The position numbers and the translations under genes are program-made. A DNA stretch of 64,000 bases from an uncultured Candidatus Saccharibacteria bacterium (GTDB lineage Bacteria; Patescibacteriota; Doudnabacteria; UBA920), in assembly GCA_964532425.1 (NCBI GenBank), contig CAZHIA010000004.1, positions 19,740 through 83,739 of the forward strand, read 5' to 3'. The notes under the pieces are model-generated. The model was not told the DNA's origin, searched no databases, and was given only the letters and a program-made list of their open reading frames with translations. Shown here in pieces: positions 26,028 to 40,510 of the stretch (the stretch's first letter is position 1; the number at the start of each line of letters is the position of its first letter).

Positions 26028-28376
26028 ATGGGAAAAATGGCAAATTTTATCGCCACATACCAGGTCGTTAAGAAACATTTTAAAAAAGTTGCGTTTCAAA
26101 ATGCCGTGACTCTGGTCAACGGGATCTTTTTTGTGGTCTGCCTGCTCCTGCTCGTATTTCTGGAATTTCACGAGGCGCTGTTTTTAGCCATCGTTTTGTT
26201 CCTCAACATCATTATCGGCATTATTCAAGATTTACGCGCCAAGGTTGCCCTGGAGCGGTTACAGATTCTCATGACCCCCAAAATTACGCGATTGCACAAG
26301 AACGGGCTCGAAGAGACTGTCCGGTTGGAGGACGTTACCATGGGAGACGTACTCAAGGTTTCGCTCGGCGACCAAATTCCGGCTGACGGCGTGATAGTGG
26401 AAAGCCGCGGCCTTGAAGTAAACGAAGCGCTCATTACCGGAGAATCCAATAGCGTAGCCAAAACCGTGGGAAGCAAGACACTCGCCGGCAGCATTGCCAC
26501 AGCCGGATGGGGTAGTCTGCAAGTTACCGTTCCCCCGTCAGAGAGCTTTGTCTCGCAGATGACCAACAAGATCAAGCAGTACACGATCAACCTGAGTCCT
26601 ATTCAGCAGACACTCAACACGTTCATCACGTACATGACTTATCTCCTGCTGGCCGTGGTCATATACGTCATTTACCACGGACTAACCGTCCATGAACTGC
26701 TCGTCTCAATAGTCAAAGATATTGCCGCACTGACCGGTACGCTCGTCCCACAAGGATTAATATTGGCCACCACCGTATTCTTCGCTTATGGCGCCGTTCG
26801 CTTATTCCGCAAGCAAGTTCTGCTCCAAGAGATCAATGCCACGGAAAAGCTGGGACGGATAAAGAACCTTTGCATAGACAAGACCGGCACACTGACCGAG
26901 AATAAGCCCACACTCGAATCAATCGAGCTATACGGAGGTACCACGCAGGATCAGGCATTGCAGTTGATCGATGGATACATCCAAGCCAACAATGACGCTT
27001 CGGAGACTACCAAGGCCATACAGGCGGGACGCAAACCAACCTTCCAAGGTTCAGTCAGTGATTCCCTCCCTTTTTCTTCTACCCGGAAATTTGGCACAGC
27101 CACTCTTCTGCAACCGGGTGGAACATTTGTCACCATTACTGTGGGAGCCCCTGATGTTCTCCTGACGCGCCTGGGACTGGCTGCCGAACAGGAATGGTTG
27201 AATGCCGTGATCAACCATTACGCCACCCAAGCCAAACGTTTAGTCTTGCTGGCTATGGCTGACCAGAATATGCTGGAGGCGCCGGTCCAAGAGTCCGTAC
27301 TCCACCCGGTTGCCGTGTTCGTGCTATCCAATCCCCTCCGTACCGGCACGACAGATATCATCAACTTCTTCCAGAACCGCGGGGTCAGTATCCGCGTCAT
27401 TTCCGGTGACAACCCGAAGACTGTCCAAGCAATAGCCGTACAAGCGGGTATTAAGCACGCAGACATAATTGTCACCGGTCCGGAAATTGAGCGTTGGGAT
27501 AGCGAGGAATTCCAGGAACGTATTCCGGCCTACCACTTATTCGCCCGCATCAAACCGGAACAAAAAGAACGTATTGTCGAATTGTTCAAAACCCAAGGAT
27601 TCACGGCCATGGTCGGCGACGGAGCCAATGACGCACTTGCCATTAAAAAATCCGACCTCGGGATTGCCATGTTCGACGGCGCCGGCGCCACAAGGCAGAT
27701 TGCCCAAGTCGTGCTCATGAACAACAGTTTTGCCGCGCTTCCCACCGGAGTCAATCTGGCCGAGACCATCATCACGAACATCGAACTGGTCGCCAGCGCA
27801 TTCTTCTACTCGGTCACTGTTGGATTGTCATTGTTTCTCATCCTCGCAATCCTCGGCTACACCTACCCGCTCTCTCCCCGCAACACCACCATTATCAACT
27901 ATTTCATTGTCTGGCTGCCCATGGTCTACTGGACCGTATTCCCTGCCCACCAGGAAAGCACAGAGGAAAATCGGTCATTTCTCAGACGAGTGCTGCCTTA
28001 TTCCATCCTGAATGGCGTTTTGACCGCGTTTGCGGCTACTTTGGCCTTTGCCTTGGGACCGGAAGCTTTGCGCTTTTCCGGCTCGCATATACTGGTGGTA
28101 CTAACCGTGGCCGCTCTTGGATTTTGGTTCTTCGTGCTCACCCCTATTGCACACCGTATCCCGGTCACGAAGCAGCAAAAGAAGGTTATTTACCTGCTGG
28201 CCGGCATTGGCGCGGTGTTTCTTATCTTTGTTATGTTCCACCCGGGGCTCTCTGAATTCTTCGATCTGCAACGGCCAACCCTGCTCCCGCTCATTTCCGC
28301 CCTCAGCATCAGCTTCCTCGTGGGATGGCTGCAGTTTCAGCTTGTCAAACGATTCTTTGCCAGGCCAAAAACCTAA
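26028..28376 (+). CDS. Cation-transporting P-type ATPase (HAD-type; probable P2/P3-like)
   Basis: DKTGTLTENKP phosphorylation site, TGES actuator motif, GDGANDALAIKKSDLGIAM hinge, 8-10 TM helices. Confidence 0.88.
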   Translation: MGKMANFIATYQVVKKHFKKVAFQNAVTLVNGIFFVVCLLLLVFLEFHEALFLAIVLFLNIIIGIIQDLRAKVALERLQILMTPKITRLHKNGLEETVRLEDVTMGDVLKVSLGDQIPADGVIVESRGLEVNEALITGESNSVAKTVGSKTLAGSIATAGWGSLQVTVPPSESFVSQMTNKIKQYTINLSPIQQTLNTFITYMTYLLLAVVIYVIYHGLTVHELLVSIVKDIAALTGTLVPQGLILATTVFFAYGAVRLFRKQVLLQEINATEKLGRIKNLCIDKTGTLTENKPTLESIELYGGTTQDQALQLIDGYIQANNDASETTKAIQAGRKPTFQGSVSDSLPFSSTRKFGTATLLQPGGTFVTITVGAPDVLLTRLGLAAEQEWLNAVINHYATQAKRLVLLAMADQNMLEAPVQESVLHPVAVFVLSNPLRTGTTDIINFFQNRGVSIRVISGDNPKTVQAIAVQAGIKHADIIVTGPEIERWDSEEFQERIPAYHLFARIKPEQKERIVELFKTQGFTAMVGDGANDALAIKKSDLGIAMFDGAGATRQIAQVVLMNNSFAALPTGVNLAETIITNIELVASAFFYSVTVGLSLFLILAILGYTYPLSPRNTTIINYFIVWLPMVYWTVFPAHQESTEENRSFLRRVLPYSILNGVLTAFAATLAFALGPEALRFSGSHILVVLTVAALGFWFFVLTPIAHRIPVTKQQKKVIYLLAGIGAVFLIFVMFHPGLSEFFDLQRPTLLPLISALSISFLVGWLQFQLVKRFFARPKT

Positions 28377-32444: not shown

Positions 32445-33950
32445 ATGAATATCAAGAAAAGATCCCTGCTCGTGGCAATGGCGACCATGGGCATGATCCT
32501 CGGTAGCATTCCGTCCGCTTTTGCGGCCACCATTTCACAGAGTGCCACCTCTGTGACCTCAGACAGTGTTTCGGGAAACTCTGTGGCCTTACCCGCTATT
32601 ACCGTTACAGAAACGGCAGCCGGTGATATCCCAGCCGGAACCTTTACTTTGGCGTTGCCTTCGGGGTATGCCTTTGATACGGCGTCCGTTGCCAATGTCA
32701 ACGTCAGCGGCCTCAACGCTTCCAGCACTGTTGCGTTCCCAGATGCCGCGCATGTGGCCATAACGGTCACCGGAACCTCGACCACTGCAGGAAGCCTCAC
32801 AATCGGATCCTCCACACCGCTTAAAGTCAAAGCGACCAGCGGCACGCCGTTGGCTAGCACGGGAACCCTGGCATTAAGCGCCGGCACTATCACTGGTATT
32901 ACAGCCACCAGCAGCTTCGGCTCGCTCAGTCAAATCCCCGGAGCTGCCAGCAAGCTCGTTTTCTCCACTCAGCCGCCGACAACTGCCACCACCAGTACCT
33001 CCTTCGGCCCCGTGACAGTAGCAACTCAAGACCAGTTCGGTAATCCGGTCACGTCCGATTCAGGACGTACGGTTAGCCTGTCTATCTCGGCTATAAACCC
33101 GACCTCAACCACCGGCAGTCTGGGCGGATCAACCTCGGCTACGACAAACAGCGGACTGGCCCAGTTTAATACTTTGAACTTTTCTCAGCCGGGTACCATT
33201 GCCCTGGTTGCCAGCTCAACCGGCTTGTTGACCGCGACCAGCAATTCGATAGTCATTTCCAATGCGCCTACTACCACCCCGACCCCGACACCGACCACTA
33301 CGCCTTCCACATCGTGCAATCTGCAGAACGGCATGCTGGTTAGAGTCGGTAATTCATCCACCGTCTACATGGTTGTAAATTGCGTATTGCGCCCGTTCAC
33401 TTCTGCCGCCATCTTCCATGCGCGCGGCAAAAAGTTCCAGGATATCCGGGACATAAAAGATGGAGATGAGCACCACTTCTCAATTGGACGACCTGTAGGC
33501 CAGGGAAACGATGATGACACCACCGTGGTCACCCCGCCTGTGACGTTTCCGGTTCCAGTGAGTACCTCAACCGTTCCTAGCTTGTCCAGTTTACCGGAAG
33601 GATCGATCGTACAAGTTCCAGGCAATCCGACCGTATATCTGGTCTCCGGCGGCGTACTCAAGCCGGTTACTTCCATGCAAGTGTTGAATTCCTACAAAAA
33701 AGACCTCAAACACTTAAAACAGATTTCGGCTGCTGATCTCGCTTCGATGCAACTTGGTTCTCCGGCAACCTTTGCCGATGGCACGCTCCTGAAAGGTTCT
33801 AACAATACCATCTACGTGGTCAGAAATGGACAACTCTTTGGTATTCCCAACATGAAGACCATGTCCAAGCATGGCTGGTCTGCTAAAAACGTCATCAAGG
33901 TATCCGATGGCGATCTCCGCCTTCACCAGATCGGCGGAATGCAAGACTAA
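32445..33950 (+). CDS. Secreted Ser/Thr-rich surface protein with Ig-like regions and a C-terminal triple ~40-aa repeat (same repeat type as the 14565 protein)
   Basis: Signal peptide MNIKKRSLLVAMATMGMILGSIPSAFA; repeats GNSSTVYMVVNCVLRPFTSAAIF, GNPTVYLVSGGVLKPVTSMQVL, NNTIYVVRNGQLFGIPNMKTM. Confidence 0.65.
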   Translation: MNIKKRSLLVAMATMGMILGSIPSAFAATISQSATSVTSDSVSGNSVALPAITVTETAAGDIPAGTFTLALPSGYAFDTASVANVNVSGLNASSTVAFPDAAHVAITVTGTSTTAGSLTIGSSTPLKVKATSGTPLASTGTLALSAGTITGITATSSFGSLSQIPGAASKLVFSTQPPTTATTSTSFGPVTVATQDQFGNPVTSDSGRTVSLSISAINPTSTTGSLGGSTSATTNSGLAQFNTLNFSQPGTIALVASSTGLLTATSNSIVISNAPTTTPTPTPTTTPSTSCNLQNGMLVRVGNSSTVYMVVNCVLRPFTSAAIFHARGKKFQDIRDIKDGDEHHFSIGRPVGQGNDDDTTVVTPPVTFPVPVSTSTVPSLSSLPEGSIVQVPGNPTVYLVSGGVLKPVTSMQVLNSYKKDLKHLKQISAADLASMQLGSPATFADGTLLKGSNNTIYVVRNGQLFGIPNMKTMSKHGWSAKNVIKVSDGDLRLHQIGGMQD

Positions 33951-34085
33951 GCAATAGTTATACCAAACTCCAGTTGTTCCAAAGATCCGCACCCGAGAGG
34001 GTGCGGATCTTTCTGTGTTCGGGCAGCTAAAGCGAGCCCCTACGGGGAACTGATAACAATTCGCAATTAACAAACGATTACATAA

Positions 34086-37000
34086 TCAATTCCTCACAAA
34101 ATCTTCCGTGACATAGTGGAAACTGTCGAGCGATGTCTTCGTTTCCGGCAACACTCCGGCAATAACGACGCTATTCCCAAAAAAGTTCTCGATGGTATCC
34201 CCTTCTTTTTTGAATAAGTTCTCGGCTTTCATCATGGCCGCCTCACGGCTGCCAATATATACCGGCAAATACTTTTTCGTGCCGAAGACCACCGGAACTA
34301 GTCCATCGCGACTGATGCTTCCCGCAAAGACTGCCGGAATGTTATTCTCGTTGATTCCATAAAAGAGTTTTATATTCCCTTTGGCATCTATAGCTGCACC
34401 GCTAGCAACGGAACTAATCCCGGTTTCAGATCGTATAATGTGGGCGTTGTCCAAAAACGTGCCCGTCGGCTTTAAGATGCCGACTATTTTCATGCTCGGT
34501 ATCCCGAAGAAGTTCTGCAAGCTGTCCCCCGGTTTTTCGAACAGTTTTTCCTTGCGCATCATTTCTGCCTCAACGGAGCCGATGATCATTTCATCTTTGC
34601 CAAGACTGCCAGTCCCTTCGGCCATGGGCAGGCTTATATTCCCCTGCCCGATCTGGACAAAGAACTTCGGGTTCGTTTCGGCAAAATTGATTTTTATAGT
34701 GGACTGCTTGAGCAGGTCCTGGCTTTGTCTGACTATCTCCGGAGAAACTTTGACCACAGCCATGGCACTCGCCGGCTCGGCCATGCGGGTACTGAAACGA
34801 GCGAACTCGAAGAACGCTAGGGTAAAAACCAGTGCCATAACGATCGGAGCCAAAGCGGATATCCAATTGCGCTTTGCCGGACGGAAGAATCGCAAGGTTA
34901 GAGAATTGGCTACTACGGAAACCGAACTCAATGCCATAGCCAGACCTGCTAGCTCGGGCTTAAGCACCAACCCGAAGCTCGCAAAAACGCGGGCGGCAAT
35001 CGGTATTCCAATCACGTTATAGAACAAGGCGAAGAACATGTTCTGTTTGATCTTGCCCATAGTCTCGCGGGACAGTTGAATGGAATTAACCACGTCGTTC
35101 AAATCATTCTTCATAATAACGATGCCGCCGGTTTCCATGGCCACGTCCGTGCCGCTACCCATGGCAACACCTAAGTCTGCCTGAGCCAGGGCAGGTGCGT
35201 CATTAATACCATCCCCCACCATCGCGACTTTCTTCCCGAGCTCCTGCAACTTTTTAACCTCGCCAGCCTTATCTTCCGGCAGCACGTCTGCAATCACATT
35301 GGTTATTCCACACTGGCTGGCAATGGCTTTTGCCGTACGCTCGTTATCGCCAGTAACCATATAGACCTCAATACCCATCTTTTGTAGTTTTTCAACAGCG
35401 GCCTTTGTTGTCGGTTTAACAGTATCAGCTACGGCGATTATGCCTATAACCTCACCCCCGCCCTCTCCTTTGAAAGGAGAGGGAGCGGAACCAAGCAACA
35501 TGGCGGTCTTACCAGCTTCTTCTAGCTTAGACTGTTTGCGATCAACACGTTCAACGTTCACGTCCGCATGCACTGCCATCATTTTGCGGTTGCCAAAATA
35601 GTAGGTCACGCCATTTATCTCGCCCTGCACGCCATGGCCCGGAATAGCTTTGAAATTTTTTACATCAAGCAACCCCACCCCATTTTCCTGGGCGTGTGCA
35701 TAGATGGCTTCAGCAAGCGGATGCTCGGACATCCGCTCCAGGGAAGCCGCGATCTGCATGATATCAGCTTCATCCATAGCCCCCAATGAAACGACATCAG
35801 TCACCTCCGGCTTGCCGTGAGTCAATGTTCCGGTCTTGTCAAAAATGATTGTACTGATCTTGCATGCTGCTTCCAGCGGCTCCCCACCTTTTACCAGAAT
35901 ACCATTTTCCGCACCCTTGCCAGTGCCAACCATGAGTGCGGTCGGCGTGGCCAAACCTAATGCACATGGACACGCGATCACGATCACGGAGGTAAAAGCC
36001 ATTAAGGCAAAACTGAGCGAAGAGTGAAGAGCGAAAAGCCAAATTACAAAAGTCAATATTGCTAATCCAATGACCGCTGGCACAAACCATGCGGAGATCC
36101 GATCAGCAAACGCCTGGATAGGCGCCTTGCTGCCTTGGGCTTCTTCTACCAGACGGATGATTTGGGCCAGCACGGTCTCGTTGCCTATTTTGGTCACTTC
36201 AAATTCAAAGCTGCCGGTCTTGTTGATGGTACCTCCGGCGACGGTATCCCCGATCTTCTTTTCTACGGGCAAACTTTCGCCGGTAAGCATGGACTCGTCC
36301 ACAGACGAGGACCCTTTCGTGATTACACCATCGATCGGCACTTTCTCGCCCGGCCTCACAATTACAATATCCTTCTTGGCTACCTGCTCGACCGGAATGT
36401 CTATGGTTTGCCCGCCGCGTATAACGCGGGCAGTCTTGGCCTGCAAGCCCATAAGTTTTTTGATGGAATCCGAGGTCTTGCCTTTGGTCCGTACTTCCAG
36501 CCACTTGCCCAAGGTCACGAATGTGATTAGGAACGCTGCGGTTTCAAAGTACAAATTCGGCACTTTACCGCCGGACAATCCCAGCACCGTTTTGTTCGCA
36601 GCGGCATACAAAACCAAATTCACCAGGCTGTACACGTAGGCCGTGGAAGTACCAATGGCTATCAGGCTATCCATATTGAATGTCTTCATGCGCAAACTCG
36701 ACCACATGCCTTTGTAAAACCCCTTACCTATAATGAACTGAACAGGTGTCGCCAAAATCAGCGAGACGATCCCCACATAGGGTAACAACCCCACGCCAGG
36801 AAGGGTTGAAAAAAAATCGATCATCATGAAATACAATAGCGGTGCGCTCAGTGCGGCGCTGGCTATTAATCTGTTCCTGATGGCTCGAAGTTCAGCCTGC
36901 CGTAAGCGCGATTCGGCTTCCGCATCTTCCTTCGTGGCTTCGTCGGCATCGTATCCGGCTTTTTTCACAGCCGTAATGAGATCAGAAATACCGGCCTGCG

Positions 37001-37148
37001 TTTCATCGAATCGTATAGAGGCCTTTTCCGCCCCGAAGTTGACTGTGGCAGTTTTGACGCCGGCAACCTTGTTGAGTGACTGCTCTATAAGCAATGCACA
37101 AGACGCGCAATGCATTCCATGCACGCGTAATTGAGTACGAGTATCCAT
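34086..37148 (-). CDS. copA: Copper-translocating P1B-type ATPase with an N-terminal HMA domain and an unusual ~270-aa C-terminal extension containing a tandem duplicated ~100-aa module
   Basis: GMHCASCA (HMA CxxC), CPC in TM6 ([11 protein letters not shown]), [17 protein letters not shown]. Extension repeats [33 protein letters not shown]... and [32 protein letters not shown]... Confidence 0.88.
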
Positions 37149-37157
37149 AGTTTCAGT

Positions 37158-38489
37158 TTAATCAGTGACAATAAACTTTCCGCGGTACATCCCCATAGAA
37201 CAAGAAAAATCGATTTCTCCCGTTTGCGTAGGCGTGAATTCAATTACATTCTCGCCAAGTTTGAGAGGCTGAGCAATACCGAACGCCGGCATACTCAGGG
37301 TGCTTGCACAGGTGTATTGACTGGTAGAGTTAATGACCCACCTGACCTTCGCGCCTTTTTTGACAGTGAATTGGTTAGGGCTATATCCCGTTCCGCTTTG
37401 AACCATCTTTACTTCCTGTACGGGACCTACGGCATCCTGGCTGCCCTGCTGAGTCACAGCGCTCCCTACGCGGTGAGGAAACACGACACGGCTGGCGTTT
37501 GCGATATTAAAAATTCCGAGGAATATCACGGCAACTCCCGCTGCGGAAAAAAATATTCGGGCTTTGGAACCCTTAAATACACTGGAGAGTCCGCCTATGC
37601 TAAGCATGCCAGGCGCTGTACCCAAGGCGAACAACGACATAACCAGCGCACCCTGGACAAAACTGCCGGTCGAAATGGCATATAATTGCATAGCTTGGGT
37701 AAAACCGCATGGCAGGAAGAAAGTCATGACCCCGCCGACAAAAGCACTGGTGTTACTATATCCCTTGTCACCAGACTTGATCCCGAGTATACGAGACACG
37801 GACTTCGGGATCGTGATATTGACCCGTTGCAAGGCTGGGAATATTTCGATCAATTTCAAGCCCAAGAGCACCATTACCGCGCCAACAATAAGCGTCAGCA
37901 CGCCCATCAACCTTGCTGAAGGCTGCAGTACTCCTCCGATCAAGCCAATGAGGCCGCCGAGCACGGCAAAACCGATAATTCTCCCTAGATTGAAAAATAT
38001 ATGCGGACGGAATTTTTGCATGCGGGAAGCTTCCGGGTGGGTTTCCGAGTACCGCGCTGAGAAGGCCAACACTAAGCCGCCGACGAGAGCCATGCATGTT
38101 GATATTCCGGCAACAAGGCCAACGAGCACCGCCACCGCTAAACCTTTCTGATTAAAGTCAGCTGAAATGCCGGAGAATCCGAACAACTGGGCGGAGATAT
38201 ACAACAGCGCCAGGATAACAACGGCATTGGCTAAATAGTAATAATCCCTGAAATTCTTTGAGACCCAACCATCTTCACGGCTTGCACTGACATGGTAACC
38301 GGCATCTTCTACCACGCGGCTTATCTCATGCAACGATGGCTGTTTTTGTTCATACCAAATTTTCGCCTTCTTGGAAGACTGGCTCACTTCGACTTTCTTT
38401 ACCCCTTCGATCTTACCGATATTGTTCTCCAGGAGAACTTCACACGACTTACAGTGCATTCCCTCAACGGGGATGGTTATTTTTTCCAT
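37158..38489 (-). CDS. HMA domain fused to a CcdA/DsbD-like thiol-disulfide membrane domain and a C-terminal cupredoxin-like domain
   Basis: GMHCKSCE (HMA); conserved TM cysteines (ISTCMALVGG, FFLPCGF) as in CcdA/DsbD; C-terminal YTCASTLSMP...FSCSMGMYRGKFIV resembles a cupredoxin_1-like metal site. Confidence 0.65.
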   Translation of the reverse strand: MEKITIPVEGMHCKSCEVLLENNIGKIEGVKKVEVSQSSKKAKIWYEQKQPSLHEISRVVEDAGYHVSASREDGWVSKNFRDYYYLANAVVILALLYISAQLFGFSGISADFNQKGLAVAVLVGLVAGISTCMALVGGLVLAFSARYSETHPEASRMQKFRPHIFFNLGRIIGFAVLGGLIGLIGGVLQPSARLMGVLTLIVGAVMVLLGLKLIEIFPALQRVNITIPKSVSRILGIKSGDKGYSNTSAFVGGVMTFFLPCGFTQAMQLYAISTGSFVQGALVMSLFALGTAPGMLSIGGLSSVFKGSKARIFFSAAGVAVIFLGIFNIANASRVVFPHRVGSAVTQQGSQDAVGPVQEVKMVQSGTGYSPNQFTVKKGAKVRWVINSTSQYTCASTLSMPAFGIAQPLKLGENVIEFTPTQTGEIDFSCSMGMYRGKFIVTD

Positions 38490-38500
38490 GTTTATATTTA

Positions 38501-38767
38501 TTATTTGTTGTGAAGATCGTAAATCTTGAGCAACTCAGCGACCGCCTTGGAGGTATGACCTCCGCTAAACTGGTGAGCCACGTGCTCCTCCAAATGGTTT
38601 TTAAGCAACGAGGCATCGAAGCTCTCGAGCGAGCGCTGAATAGCGCGGGATTGAGTAATAATGTCCACGCAGTACTTGTTATCCTCAAGCATACGTTCAA
38701 TTCCCGCCATCTGGCCTTGAATGCGGTGGATTCGGTTAATGAGATCTTTTTGGCACTTTGCTTGCAT
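38501..38767 (-). CDS. csoR: CsoR/RcnR/FrmR-family metal-sensing transcriptional repressor
   Basis: DUF156 fold: IHRIQGQMAGIERMLEDNKYCVDIITQSRAIQ with conserved Cys/His ligands (C..H...H). Confidence 0.8.
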   Translation of the reverse strand: MQAKCQKDLINRIHRIQGQMAGIERMLEDNKYCVDIITQSRAIQRSLESFDASLLKNHLEEHVAHQFSGGHTSKAVAELLKIYDLHNK

Positions 38768-38799
38768 TGGATATTAGTAATTAGTAATTTGATATTTCT

Positions 38800-38828
38800 A
38801 TCATATACCCCCTGGGGGTATATGTCAA
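38800..38828 (-). promoter_or_regulatory. Promoter of the csoR-copA operon with a CsoR-type operator palindrome as its spacer
   Basis: On the minus strand: TTGACA - TATACCCCCTGGGGGTA (17 nt; palindrome ATACCCCCTGGGGGTAT) - TATGAT. Confidence 0.7.
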
Positions 38829-38941
38829 TGTGGATAAGTCGATCATGATTCTCACGGCTCCGTGTAGAAATTTCCGCTTGCTTCCGGCTTATTTGTATGG
38901 TATTCTGCCCTATTACAGCTGCAGAACACCAAGGAGGACCT

Positions 38942-40510
38942 ATGACCGAAGAACTGCAATATATCAGTTCCGACCGTATCACGGTGGAAATTTCCAGCCG
39001 GACTTTCGGGACCACTACCAAGGCACATCAAAAATACTTGCAGGATGTGCCGCCGGAATTCTCACCTCTCGCCGGACAGCTGCGCAAACAGTCGGCCTTG
39101 CTCGCACTCCATCCCGACCACGCCACCCGGGAGCAGGTCTGGGCTGCCTATGGGACAGACCTAAAACTGCTCCAGGAGCATAGCAGCCAGTTCCAAGCTT
39201 TCATGCGGGCGGCGATCAAATGCTCGGTAAAGACCAAAGCCTCTGCCGGGAACGACCGGGATGCGGTTGCCAGCGATACGTATGCCATGCTGGAAAAGAA
39301 CATTCCTGCCATTGGCAATGCTCCCCTGCTGGAACTGTCCCACATTCGGGCAGCCAAGCCGGCTGACGAACAATTGTTCGAACTCCAGGAAGAATTCGAG
39401 GAAGGCATCGGCAGACTGCTCAGGTTGTTTTCCTTCTGGCTGCAAATGCTGGTGGAAGCCGAACTTGTCGGCCTGGCAGAATGGAGCACGGACGACGTCT
39501 GCCGCTACCATTACTTCCGGCATTCGATGGAAGAGAAGGTCGTTTCGGAAAAAATCAAGAAGGAAACCGAGACGAAAGACAATGGCTGGTTCAAGGTCAC
39601 AGAGATCGCTGACGAAACGATCACGCAGACCCTGTTCAAAGAGCGCCACATCCATACCGTGGTAGCCGCCAAATGCTGGAGCCTGCCGGACTATCCCAGG
39701 CCGGTTCCCAAACGCATCGCCGCGCTGCTTGACGAAGTACCGAAGTGGCTCATGCCGCTTATCCGCATCGTGGACGGCCAGATGACCATGGAAGAAGTCG
39801 TCCGCATTAACCAGGAAGAGCGGACCATTGAGCGTTCCGAAATCCGCGGCGTCTACGAGTATGAGCCCGGAATCCTTCTTGGGACGTTCAATCTGGCAGG
39901 GTTTACCCTCGCCGAATCGGCCAATGCCTACTACGATAGTCAAAGCTGTGCGGAAGCAGTCAGAAATGCCGAAGCTCAACACCAACGCTCCGCACAGCGA
40001 AAGGCAGTTATCCGTGGTACCATCACAACAGCGCTCGTCATCACCGCCATCCTGCTCGCAGGGCTAGTTGTCTATCGCGGGATGGAAAGAGGCGCCGAAC
40101 GTGACCGTGCCGCATATCGCGCATATACCGCCGAGCACTCAACGGGAGAGGTTCTTCTGGCTAAACCTGGTGACCTGATTCCACTCAAAAACCGGGTGTA
40201 CCTGAAATACAATGGAGCCGATCCGTTGAACCGGTCTATTCAGTTCTCTCCGGTCAAAGGCGTGAAGCTGCCGCTTGACGGCGCAGCCGTTAGCGACCCG
40301 GCGGATACGCAGATTCACCAAGCGCCAAATCCGTACATGTTCGTCCTGATGCAGAGTGCAGAAAGCGCTTATTACGGAGACATTGACCTCGGACCGTCTC
40401 TGGGGATCTTCGTCAAGCTGCACATTTTGTCCATCAAAGACTCGAGTCACGAGATGAAGTACTCGTATACAGCGTACGCTGACGGGCAGTGGAACCAACC
40501 AGCGCAATAG
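38942..40510 (+). CDS. Hypothetical protein, 522 aa, with a single TM helix (~aa 370-390)
   Basis: AGGAGG RBS before the ATG at 38942; the track ORF from 38897 is an extension. No family recognised. Confidence 0.6.
   Translation: MTEELQYISSDRITVEISSRTFGTTTKAHQKYLQDVPPEFSPLAGQLRKQSALLALHPDHATREQVWAAYGTDLKLLQEHSSQFQAFMRAAIKCSVKTKASAGNDRDAVASDTYAMLEKNIPAIGNAPLLELSHIRAAKPADEQLFELQEEFEEGIGRLLRLFSFWLQMLVEAELVGLAEWSTDDVCRYHYFRHSMEEKVVSEKIKKETETKDNGWFKVTEIADETITQTLFKERHIHTVVAAKCWSLPDYPRPVPKRIAALLDEVPKWLMPLIRIVDGQMTMEEVVRINQEERTIERSEIRGVYEYEPGILLGTFNLAGFTLAESANAYYDSQSCAEAVRNAEAQHQRSAQRKAVIRGTITTALVITAILLAGLVVYRGMERGAERDRAAYRAYTAEHSTGEVLLAKPGDLIPLKNRVYLKYNGADPLNRSIQFSPVKGVKLPLDGAAVSDPADTQIHQAPNPYMFVLMQSAESAYYGDIDLGPSLGIFVKLHILSIKDSSHEMKYSYTAYADGQWNQPAQ

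Follow-up and report, generated by a model that had tools for sequence, protein, structure and literature searches.

A CopA-type copper ATPase with a ninth transmembrane helix and a predicted extracytoplasmic two-repeat tail in Patescibacteria

RESULTS

Organization of the gene and its copper ATPase core

We analyzed a stretch of 64,000 nucleotides (nt) from an uncultured Candidatus Saccharibacteria bacterium placed by GTDB in Doudnabacteria (assembly GCA_964532425.1, contig CAZHIA010000004.1, positions 19,740 to 83,739), which is called the 64-kb window below, and focused on a CopA-type copper ATPase that continues far beyond its canonical C-terminal end. The gene is a single unbroken open reading frame (ORF) on the minus strand, 34086..37148, encoding 1020 amino acids (aa), and the identical protein was also found on an independently assembled Logan contig. 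From the N-terminus to the C-terminus, the protein is made up of the following parts, where TM denotes a transmembrane helix, AF2 denotes AlphaFold2, and pLDDT is the predicted local distance difference test.

34884..37148, minus strand: canonical P1B-1 Cu(I) ATPase core, aa 1-755 (Pfam, TIGR01511, and motifs read from the translation)
34866..34892, minus strand: short basic cytoplasmic loop between TM8 and TM9, aa 753-761, RFFRPAKRN (sequence; conservation in 59 fused homologues)
34782..34865, minus strand: ninth TM helix with a juxtamembrane FSSxM motif, aa 762-789 (hydrophobicity, AF2 helix, and conservation)
34701..34781, minus strand: predicted flexible linker, aa 790-802, and then a short helix, aa 803-815 (AF2 models)
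34431..34700, minus strand: repeat 1 of the predicted extracytoplasmic domain, aa 817-906 (repeat statistics, AF2 pLDDT > 90, and conservation)
34110..34406, minus strand: repeat 2, aa 915-1013 (repeat statistics, AF2, and conservation)

The core starts with an HMA domain containing the motif GMHCASCA and has eight TM helices. Pfam assigned HMA (aa 7-67), E1-E2_ATPase (aa 235-414), and HAD hydrolase (aa 431-658) domains to the 1020-aa protein, and TIGR01511, the profile of copper-translocating P-type ATPases, matched aa 141-753 with 622 bits against a cut-off of 397. P1B-1 pumps carry CPC in TM6, N-x6-YN-x4-P in TM7, and M-x2-SS in TM8; this Cu(I) signature is present overall, and both DKTGT and MALSS were found in the translation. 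By its sequence, the core belongs to the P1B-1 Cu(I) ATPases (CopA), and the topology is a variant: instead of eight TM helices and a cytoplasmic C-terminus, the protein has a ninth hydrophobic helix (aa 762-789) and a predicted external tail. The equivalog profile of E. coli CopA stops at aa 758, on its penultimate position (837 of 838), and the excess over canonical CopA is approximately 265 aa (nt 34089-34883). A sequence-only reading of this DNA had described a canonical Cu(I) P1B-ATPase with a C-terminal extension at 34086-34900; the profile score and the length beyond the canonical end agree with this description, and the coordinates were accurate.

The two tandem repeats noticed by the same reading were also recovered statistically. 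They are about 95 aa each, and the local alignment of aa 823-905 with aa 922-1013 scored 138, compared with 26.6 +/- 4.8 in 1000 shuffles (z ≈ 23). Repeat 1 starts with a β-hairpin and two strands, continues with a helix that bears E860-A-x-M863-M864-x-x-E867, and after another β-hairpin reaches TGTxxD900xxH903, and repeat 2 follows the same secondary-structure order with E969-A-x-M972-M973-x-x-E976 and D1008-x-x-H1011. No further hydrophobic segment was found after repeat 2, where the protein ends. The extension had been said to contain no Cys or His metal ligands, which is correct for Cys (0 residues) and incorrect for His, because the tail has two (H903 and H1011), one per repeat at equivalent positions, together with conserved Met, Glu, and Asp residues in each repeat.

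The ninth transmembrane helix and the location of the tail

The segment of aa 762-789 directly follows the last canonical TM helix and has a Kyte-Doolittle value of 2.23 over 19 residues. In the fused form, the loop ahead of it contains 4-5 Lys or Arg residues, with P757 and N761 invariant among the 59 fused homologues, and the segment past it is the near-neutral E-F-A-(K/R)-F-S-S-x-M. TM9 is conserved on one helical face (S764, A767, P768, M771, F775, F779, F782, A783, and S786), and its helical moment of conservation was 9.3, compared with 4.1 for permutations (p = 0.014). In addition, TM9 had a pLDDT of 44-63 when the tail was modeled alone and of 68-79, close to the values of TM7 and TM8, when the whole protein was modeled. 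Because conservation is confined to one face and the pLDDT is gained in the presence of the pump, these results suggest, with moderate support, that TM9 packs against the pump. Beyond TM9, the pLDDT of aa 791-798 stays below 50 in the AF2 models, which suggests that this segment is a flexible tether.

Since TM8 ends in the cytoplasm, the side on which the tail lies depends on TM9, and three independent lines of evidence were consistent with an external location. The first is TM9 itself with its basic loop. The second is the layout of the homologues encoded as stand-alone proteins, which consist of an N-terminal signal-anchor and the domain and show a positive-inside charge bias; the N-side flank of their TM helix has more Lys and Arg residues than the opposite flank in 36 of 55 sequences and fewer in only 3 of 55. 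The third is the predicted fold, as the structural relatives of the tail are domains that are always periplasmic. From these lines we infer, with strong support, that the tail very probably lies outside the membrane. The earlier view of the extension as cytoplasmic is contradicted by all three, and its description as a simply soluble continuation had overlooked the ninth hydrophobic helix.

Predicted fold of the tail

The sequence-only reading had proposed that the fold be predicted with AlphaFold. We modeled the tail from a 13-sequence alignment and, separately, the full-length protein. The isolated tail gave a mean pLDDT of 84.5 and a predicted TM-score (pTM) of 0.74, with values above 90 in the globular part; the tail exceeded 90 in both models, and the secondary-structure order was identical. 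Each repeat opens with a β-hairpin and two strands; a helix, another β-hairpin, a short helix, and a last strand follow. In a Foldseek search against PDB, all 12 top matches were periplasmic domains of type VII (MacB-type) ABC transporters, and the matches ranked below them were noise. The best match was YbbP (9ge7_A; E = 0.028, probability 0.99), and the others included LolE and LolC from LolCDE complexes and the isolated periplasmic domain of LolC (6f49; probability 0.92-0.96, root mean square deviation 3.7-5.4 Å over approximately 100 columns).

No model in Pfam (2025 copy) or NCBIfam (2026) covers the tail. When the family members were scanned individually, the most frequent Pfam match by a wide margin was MacB_PCD (PF12704), the MacB-like periplasmic core domain (PCD), which appeared in 14 of 67 members at E <= 1 with a best E value of 7e-6. 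It was absent from the detailed Pfam scan of the first 10 relatives and was found in the second batch; the best detailed score among the relatives was 23 bits, below the cut-off of 27. The match covers profile positions ~131-195 of 207, through repeat 1 in P0088 and through repeat 2 in P0089, and in both repeats the subthreshold matches sit on the same motif, IG..A..LF..GD..G...I.GIL. The relation to MacB_PCD is remote similarity, not membership, and as far as the models allow, the tail probably has a MacB-PCD-like fold.

The tail, as predicted, and the MacB-like PCD of MacB, LolC/LolE, FtsX, and YbbP are alike in being extracytoplasmic α/β domains that follow a TM helix, and these proteins gave the best and the only consistent structural matches. 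In contrast to MacB-type permeases, the unit in the tail is tandemly duplicated and has neither the FtsX TM domain nor an ABC ATPase partner. The 1020-aa protein showed no FtsX match in Pfam and no four-helix TM domain of the FtsX type, and no ORF combining Walker A with LSGGQ, as expected of an ABC ATPase, was found within the 64-kb window. Such candidates were present in 3 of 108 related loci, and two of them were ORFs of ~940 aa.

Conserved residues in the repeats

Conservation was computed over 100 complete domains. The best-conserved nonglycine residues were E860, M864, D900, and H903 in repeat 1 and E969, A970, M973, D984, D1008, and H1011 in repeat 2, at 86-100%; H903 and H1011 were conserved in 86-89% of the 100 members. 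The complete six-site pattern E-M-M-E…D-H was present in 61% of the repeat-1 copies and 50% of the repeat-2 copies. The E/MM/E and D..H residues are specific to the tail family when compared with MacB-type domains. Further conserved Met residues are M771 in TM9 and M789 and M796 just outside the membrane. Extracytoplasmic copper sites use Met, His, and carboxylate ligands.

Some tails contain a single repeat, which is repeat-1-like in L057 and L109 and repeat-2-like in L058, L059, L061, and L063, and all of them retain the motifs. This pattern implies independent losses of either repeat, and one repeat is evidently enough in some lineages.

Distribution of the fused and stand-alone forms

The genome pattern scan, with one genome per GTDB species, gave 54 loci. 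The CopA core and the tail lay within one stop-to-stop ORF of ~1015-1245 aa in 51 of them, and the other three were cut by contig ends. Fragments at contig ends that resembled separate genes (P0005, P0008, and P0010) are read through in frame from TM8/TM9, and P0003 is split solely by a run of Ns. In the full-length search, the 120 best clusters all carried the fusion (1010-1229 aa, 99-100% query coverage, 61-75% identity), and none of them had a Pfam domain on the tail. The named proteins among the 120 are annotated as 'copper-translocating' or 'heavy metal translocating P-type ATPase' of Doudnabacteria, Daviesbacteria, Parcubacteria, and the Patescibacteria group. The fusion was present in 16 additional metagenome loci. 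Counting the fused form together with genes adjoining copA, the module accompanies the copper pump in far more than one hundred related lineages.

When 1.84 billion representatives were searched exhaustively with an HMMER profile, only 197 clusters reached E ≤ 1e-3, and because this number is so low, the family is considered to be small and lineage restricted. A homology search with the tail only, which used a word prefilter, had given just 12 matches; the exhaustive profile search and the full-length search show that the family is much larger. Carriers of the fusion are nearly all bacteria of the candidate phyla radiation (CPR)/Patescibacteria, which answers the earlier question of whether the extension is lineage specific. 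The novelty attributed to the extension stands in that no domain model covers it and canonical CopA lacks it; it is not unique to this protein, as the clusters and species genomes above demonstrate.

Some carriers bear labels from outside CPR. Metagenome-assembled genomes (MAGs) from third-party annotation (TPA)/'binchicken' records labeled as Bdellovibrionales, Gammaproteobacteria, or Pseudomonadales are among L014, L017-L019, L021-L026, L032, L039-L040, L042, L044-L046, L057, L059, and L063, and the MAG record with L048, another fusion carrier, is labeled as Actinomycetota. Their CopA-tail proteins are as similar to the 1020-aa protein as those of named CPR bacteria, and either these labels are unreliable or the module is present beyond CPR. 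In another group of loci (L080, L089, L090, L098, L100, L103, L105, and L107), CopA-tail appeared chopped under translation table 11, and all 11 in-frame stops checked were TGA. Because only in-frame TGA interrupts them, these loci are taken as encoding fused proteins, consistent with fusions in UGA-recoding (code 25) lineages such as Gracilibacteria or Absconditabacteria.

A second CopA paralogue without the tail (~745-758 aa) lies downstream, within a few kilobases of the tailed copA, in L013, L043, L046, L054, L057, and L058, and the tail-less CopA of L058 has its own HMA-DsbD_2-cupredoxin gene. The coexistence of tailed and tail-less pumps suggests a division of labor.

The tail also occurs as a separate protein. 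Approximately 55 stand-alone clusters were found, with lengths of 245-280 aa, a short N-terminus, one TM helix with the recurring motif G(T/S)xxYF, and the two-repeat domain. In one case (P0012, 265 aa), the gene follows that of a 725-aa CopA after 10 bp, and their operon also includes HMA and cupredoxin genes. The patterns for the metagenome scan were built from 11 closer sequences, as the 55-sequence alignment was too diverse for patterns. In all 15 metagenome loci with usable flanks, the stand-alone gene directly adjoins copA, immediately downstream in L064-L070, L072, L076, L078, and L085 and immediately upstream in L071 and L073-L075. Nearby, the split loci also contain CopZ-like genes as well as small cupredoxin-like genes, which number one to three. 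Adjacency that is kept despite a varying gene order, together with recurrent fusion, is a classical signature of a physical and functional partnership between the tail module and CopA. An independent downstream ORF, which the sequence-only reading had named as grounds for doubt, does exist in these other lineages; it is one half of an evolutionary split/fused pair and not the result of a sequencing error in the window.

The copper-responsive operon and neighboring genes

The tailed copA gene is the last of a three-gene unit, csoR/443-aa gene/copA-tail, with gaps of 11 and 9 bp, and this order recurs in most related loci. The other elements of the unit are as follows.

37158..38489, minus strand: upstream operon gene, 443 aa, with HMA, DsbD_2, and a C-terminal Cupredoxin_1 domain (Pfam)
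38501..38767, minus strand: CsoR-family copper-sensing repressor, 88 aa, first gene of the operon (Pfam Trns_repr_metal, E = 8e-24)
38800..38828, minus strand: sigma-70-like promoter TTGACA-17-TATGAT with 11/12 matches, just upstream of csoR (sequence)

The 443-aa protein has six strong hydrophobic peaks and one weak peak, and Cys residues lie in the TM helices of its DsbD_2 (CcdA-like) domain. It ends in FSCSMGMY, which is similar to the C-x-M-x-M motif of CupA, and its cupredoxin domain may face outward, judging from the sequence. A gene of this type is directly upstream of CopA-tail in most related loci, cupredoxin-domain genes are consistently near in both fused and split operons, and the position of csoR is kept in related loci.

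The promoter is the only strong σ70-like promoter within 33900-39000. Its spacer holds a perfect 11+11 palindrome, CATATACCCCC-a-GGGGGTATATG (38802-38824), which we take to resemble published CsoR operators and which is probably the CsoR operator controlling the whole csoR-cupredoxin gene-copA-tail unit. Because the tail is encoded in a unit with csoR and the palindrome-bearing promoter, the module is taken to be expressed within a copper-responsive system.

Three neighboring genes lie on the plus strand. A second P-type ATPase of 782 aa (26028-28376) has E1-E2_ATPase, Hydrolase, and weak Cation_ATPase_C matches and contains CIDKTGTLT and VGDGANDA; this P2-like cation pump is unrelated to the tail of the copper pump. 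The gene convergent with copA (32445-33950) encodes a 501-aa protein that is rich in Ala, Thr, and Ser, has an N-terminal signal-like sequence and no Pfam match, and may be a surface protein; its region is GC rich (0.54-0.58, compared with ~0.47-0.50 nearby). Divergent from the cop operon is a 537-aa ORF (38897-40510) with no significant Pfam match, one late TM segment, and a GC content of ~0.55-0.57.

DISCUSSION

The tail as an accessory module of the pump

We propose, with a probability of roughly 0.5, that the tail serves the Cu(I) pump as an accessory module, anchored in the membrane and located outside the cytoplasm, that accepts or relays the exported Cu(I). The parts of this proposal are not equally firm: the architecture and the linkage to CopA are highly probable, and the function as a copper acceptor or relay is a tentative hypothesis that falls somewhat short of even odds.

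In the proposed mechanism, the chain would pass from TM8 into the short basic cytoplasmic loop, and TM9 would recross the membrane and pack on the pump through its conserved face. A flexible tether of ~10-25 residues would then lead to a compact domain of two ~95-aa α/β units, each with a distant relationship in fold, and a weak one in sequence, to the periplasmic core domain of MacB/LolC/FtsX-type ABC transporters. Located near the outer mouth of the pump, this domain would take up Cu(I) leaving the exit site, with E860, M863/M864, E867, D900, and H903 in repeat 1, E969, M973, D1008, and H1011 in repeat 2, and possibly M771 and M789 as candidate ligands. The captured Cu(I) would be buffered or relayed, for example, to the cupredoxin domain of the upstream gene's product, and the copper would be kept from rebinding the membrane face or reentering the cell. 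CPR bacteria are generally regarded as lacking an outer membrane and tripartite efflux systems, and this organism probably has neither an outer membrane nor a CusCBA-type system. For cells of this kind, a tethered acceptor or relay would make functional sense.

The pump itself shares the features of canonical CopA from E. coli, Legionella, and Archaeoglobus, including the HMA domain with CxxC, CPC in TM6, N-x6-YN-x4-P in TM7, M-x2-SS in TM8, DKTGT, and GDGxNDxP, and it is also similar in the TIGR01511 score above the cut-off and in the CsoR-regulated operon. Canonical CopA has eight TM helices and a cytoplasmic end shortly after TM8 (PMC7558416), whereas the 1020-aa pump adds a ninth TM helix and a predicted external domain of ~230 aa. 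A precedent exists, as CopA passes Cu(I) to periplasmic CusF rather than simply releasing it and associates with CueP, according to a review (PMC7558416); CusF and CueP take Cu(I) from CopA on the external side of the membrane, and the CusF ligands are Met and His (PMC7558416). The tail resembles CusF and CueP in being linked to CopA, predicted to face outward, and equipped with conserved Met and His residues; it differs in being tethered or fused to the pump rather than soluble, and Pfam, Foldseek against PDB, and the PDB profile search showed no sequence or fold similarity between them. CupA/CopA of S. pneumoniae offers another comparison, as CupA is a membrane-anchored copper-handling domain dedicated to one CopA (PMC7558416) and the tail would be another, and the tail-bearing operons likewise encode Cupredoxin_1 domains, whose motif is C...CxMxM-like. 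However, CupA is a cupredoxin on the cytoplasmic entry side, whereas the tail differs in fold and has a predicted location on the exit side.

Several results weigh against the proposed role. One or two Met and one His per repeat would be few ligands next to the His, Met, Met, and Trp of CusF, and the conserved Glu, Asp, and His residues could be structural, bind another ion, or form a protein-protein interface. The joint loss of Met and His exceeds what independence predicts (Fisher p = 7e-5 and 2e-7), which favors the proposed role, but the test ignores phylogeny, and some of the 'losses' are alignment gaps. With a full-length pTM of 0.58 and a disordered linker, the AF2 model does not predict the position of the domain over the pump exit. 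The relation to MacB-type domains is also distant: the Foldseek E values were weak (0.03-0.4) with a query-normalized TM-score of only ~0.25, the tail of the 1020-aa protein gave no MacB_PCD match at E <= 10 and did not reach the gathering score, the PDB sequence-profile search with the family alignment returned only a chance capsid match (E = 1), and hhalign of the family profile against E. coli LolC aligned the TM helix alone, with a probability of 0.1.

Alternative explanations

The strongest alternative, which we regard as unlikely on balance, is a structural or regulatory accessory subunit that binds no metal and, like the β subunit of Na,K-ATPase, KdpC, or CDC50, would act by way of TM9 and the external domain to stabilize, mature, or gate the pump; an interface or a structural ion site would then account for the conserved polar residues. 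The stand-alone form of the tail shares with these subunits one TM helix and an ectodomain encoded with or attached to the pump, and it has no homology to them. Obligate adjacency or fusion to CopA fits such a subunit, as do the conserved face of TM9 and its gain in pLDDT, and MacB-type domains are, partly by general knowledge, protein-interaction or mechanotransmission modules and not metal sites. However, tail-less CopA paralogues coexist in six loci, indicating that the pump fold does not require the module, the conservation and joint loss of the Met-Met and His residues are typical of extracytoplasmic Cu(I) sites, and disorder is predicted for the segment linking TM9 to the domain. We know of no single-pass accessory subunit of P1B pumps, and none was found in the literature searched.

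A MacB-like device for mechanotransmission or partner recruitment is less probable still. Here, E1/E2 movements transmitted via TM9 would act on or dock an extracellular protein, such as the upstream cupredoxin domain or a cell wall factor, in the manner of FtsX-EnvC or LolC-LolA. The fold, the weak profile similarity to MacB_PCD, and the constant proximity of cupredoxin-domain genes in fused and split operons are in line with this idea, but the FtsX TM domain is missing, no ABC ATPase was found in the window or in 105 of 108 related loci, a flexible linker would be a poor force transmitter, and the similarity is restricted to approximately one third of the MacB_PCD profile.

We consider it very improbable that the tail is a soluble cytoplasmic appendage for regulation or metal binding, comparable to the C-terminal metal-binding domain of some archaeal CopA proteins. 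The tail does sit after the last canonical TM helix, and other P1B ATPases are generally known to carry cytoplasmic C-terminal domains; the extra hydrophobic helix with positive-inside flanks, the signal-anchor architecture of the stand-alone homologues, the similarity to an always-periplasmic fold, and the lack of Cys and of any HMA-like motif in the tail all speak against it. An assembly or frameshift artefact joining CopA to an independent downstream gene, to which the split arrangement in some lineages (a 265-aa gene 10 bp after copA) might lend color and which the sequence-only reading wished to see excluded, was rejected as having a negligible probability, since 51 of 54 independent species-level genomes, all 120 top clusters, and the independent Logan contig carry the continuous ORF, and the reading frame runs through a conserved TM8-TM9 loop in which P757 and N761 do not vary.

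Significance

No paper describing the fusion was found in full-text literature searches. As the sequences are already public under generic CopA names, they are not novel in themselves, and nothing about the pump is unusual; what appears not to have been described is the domain family, its topology, its MacB-type relation, and the obligate linkage with CopA. If the copper-accepting module that we propose is correct, it would be the first known accessory module of any P1B heavy-metal pump, with an ancient MacB-periplasmic-domain-like unit recruited, either fused or as a separate subunit, to the exit side of CopA across much of CPR. This unit would be part of the pump's own equipment, accepting or relaying Cu(I), perhaps onward to an external cupredoxin, in place of the periplasmic chaperone and the resistance-nodulation-division (RND) machinery of diderm bacteria. 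We regard this full picture as doubtful.

The exit of Cu(I) from P1B pumps and its receiver are poorly understood, especially in bacteria without an outer membrane. A pump-tethered external domain would put the pump and the acceptor on one polypeptide, making the exit-side hand-off tractable by cryo-electron microscopy and transfer assays. P1B pumps would thereby join the P-type ATPases that work with single-pass accessory subunits, and the MacB-type periplasmic fold would be seen at work outside ABC transporters. The tail defines an unannotated domain family of approximately 200 clusters at 50% identity, whose proteins in CPR genomes are now labeled only as 'copper-translocating P-type ATPase', and a Pfam or NCBIfam entry could improve the annotation of CPR genomes.

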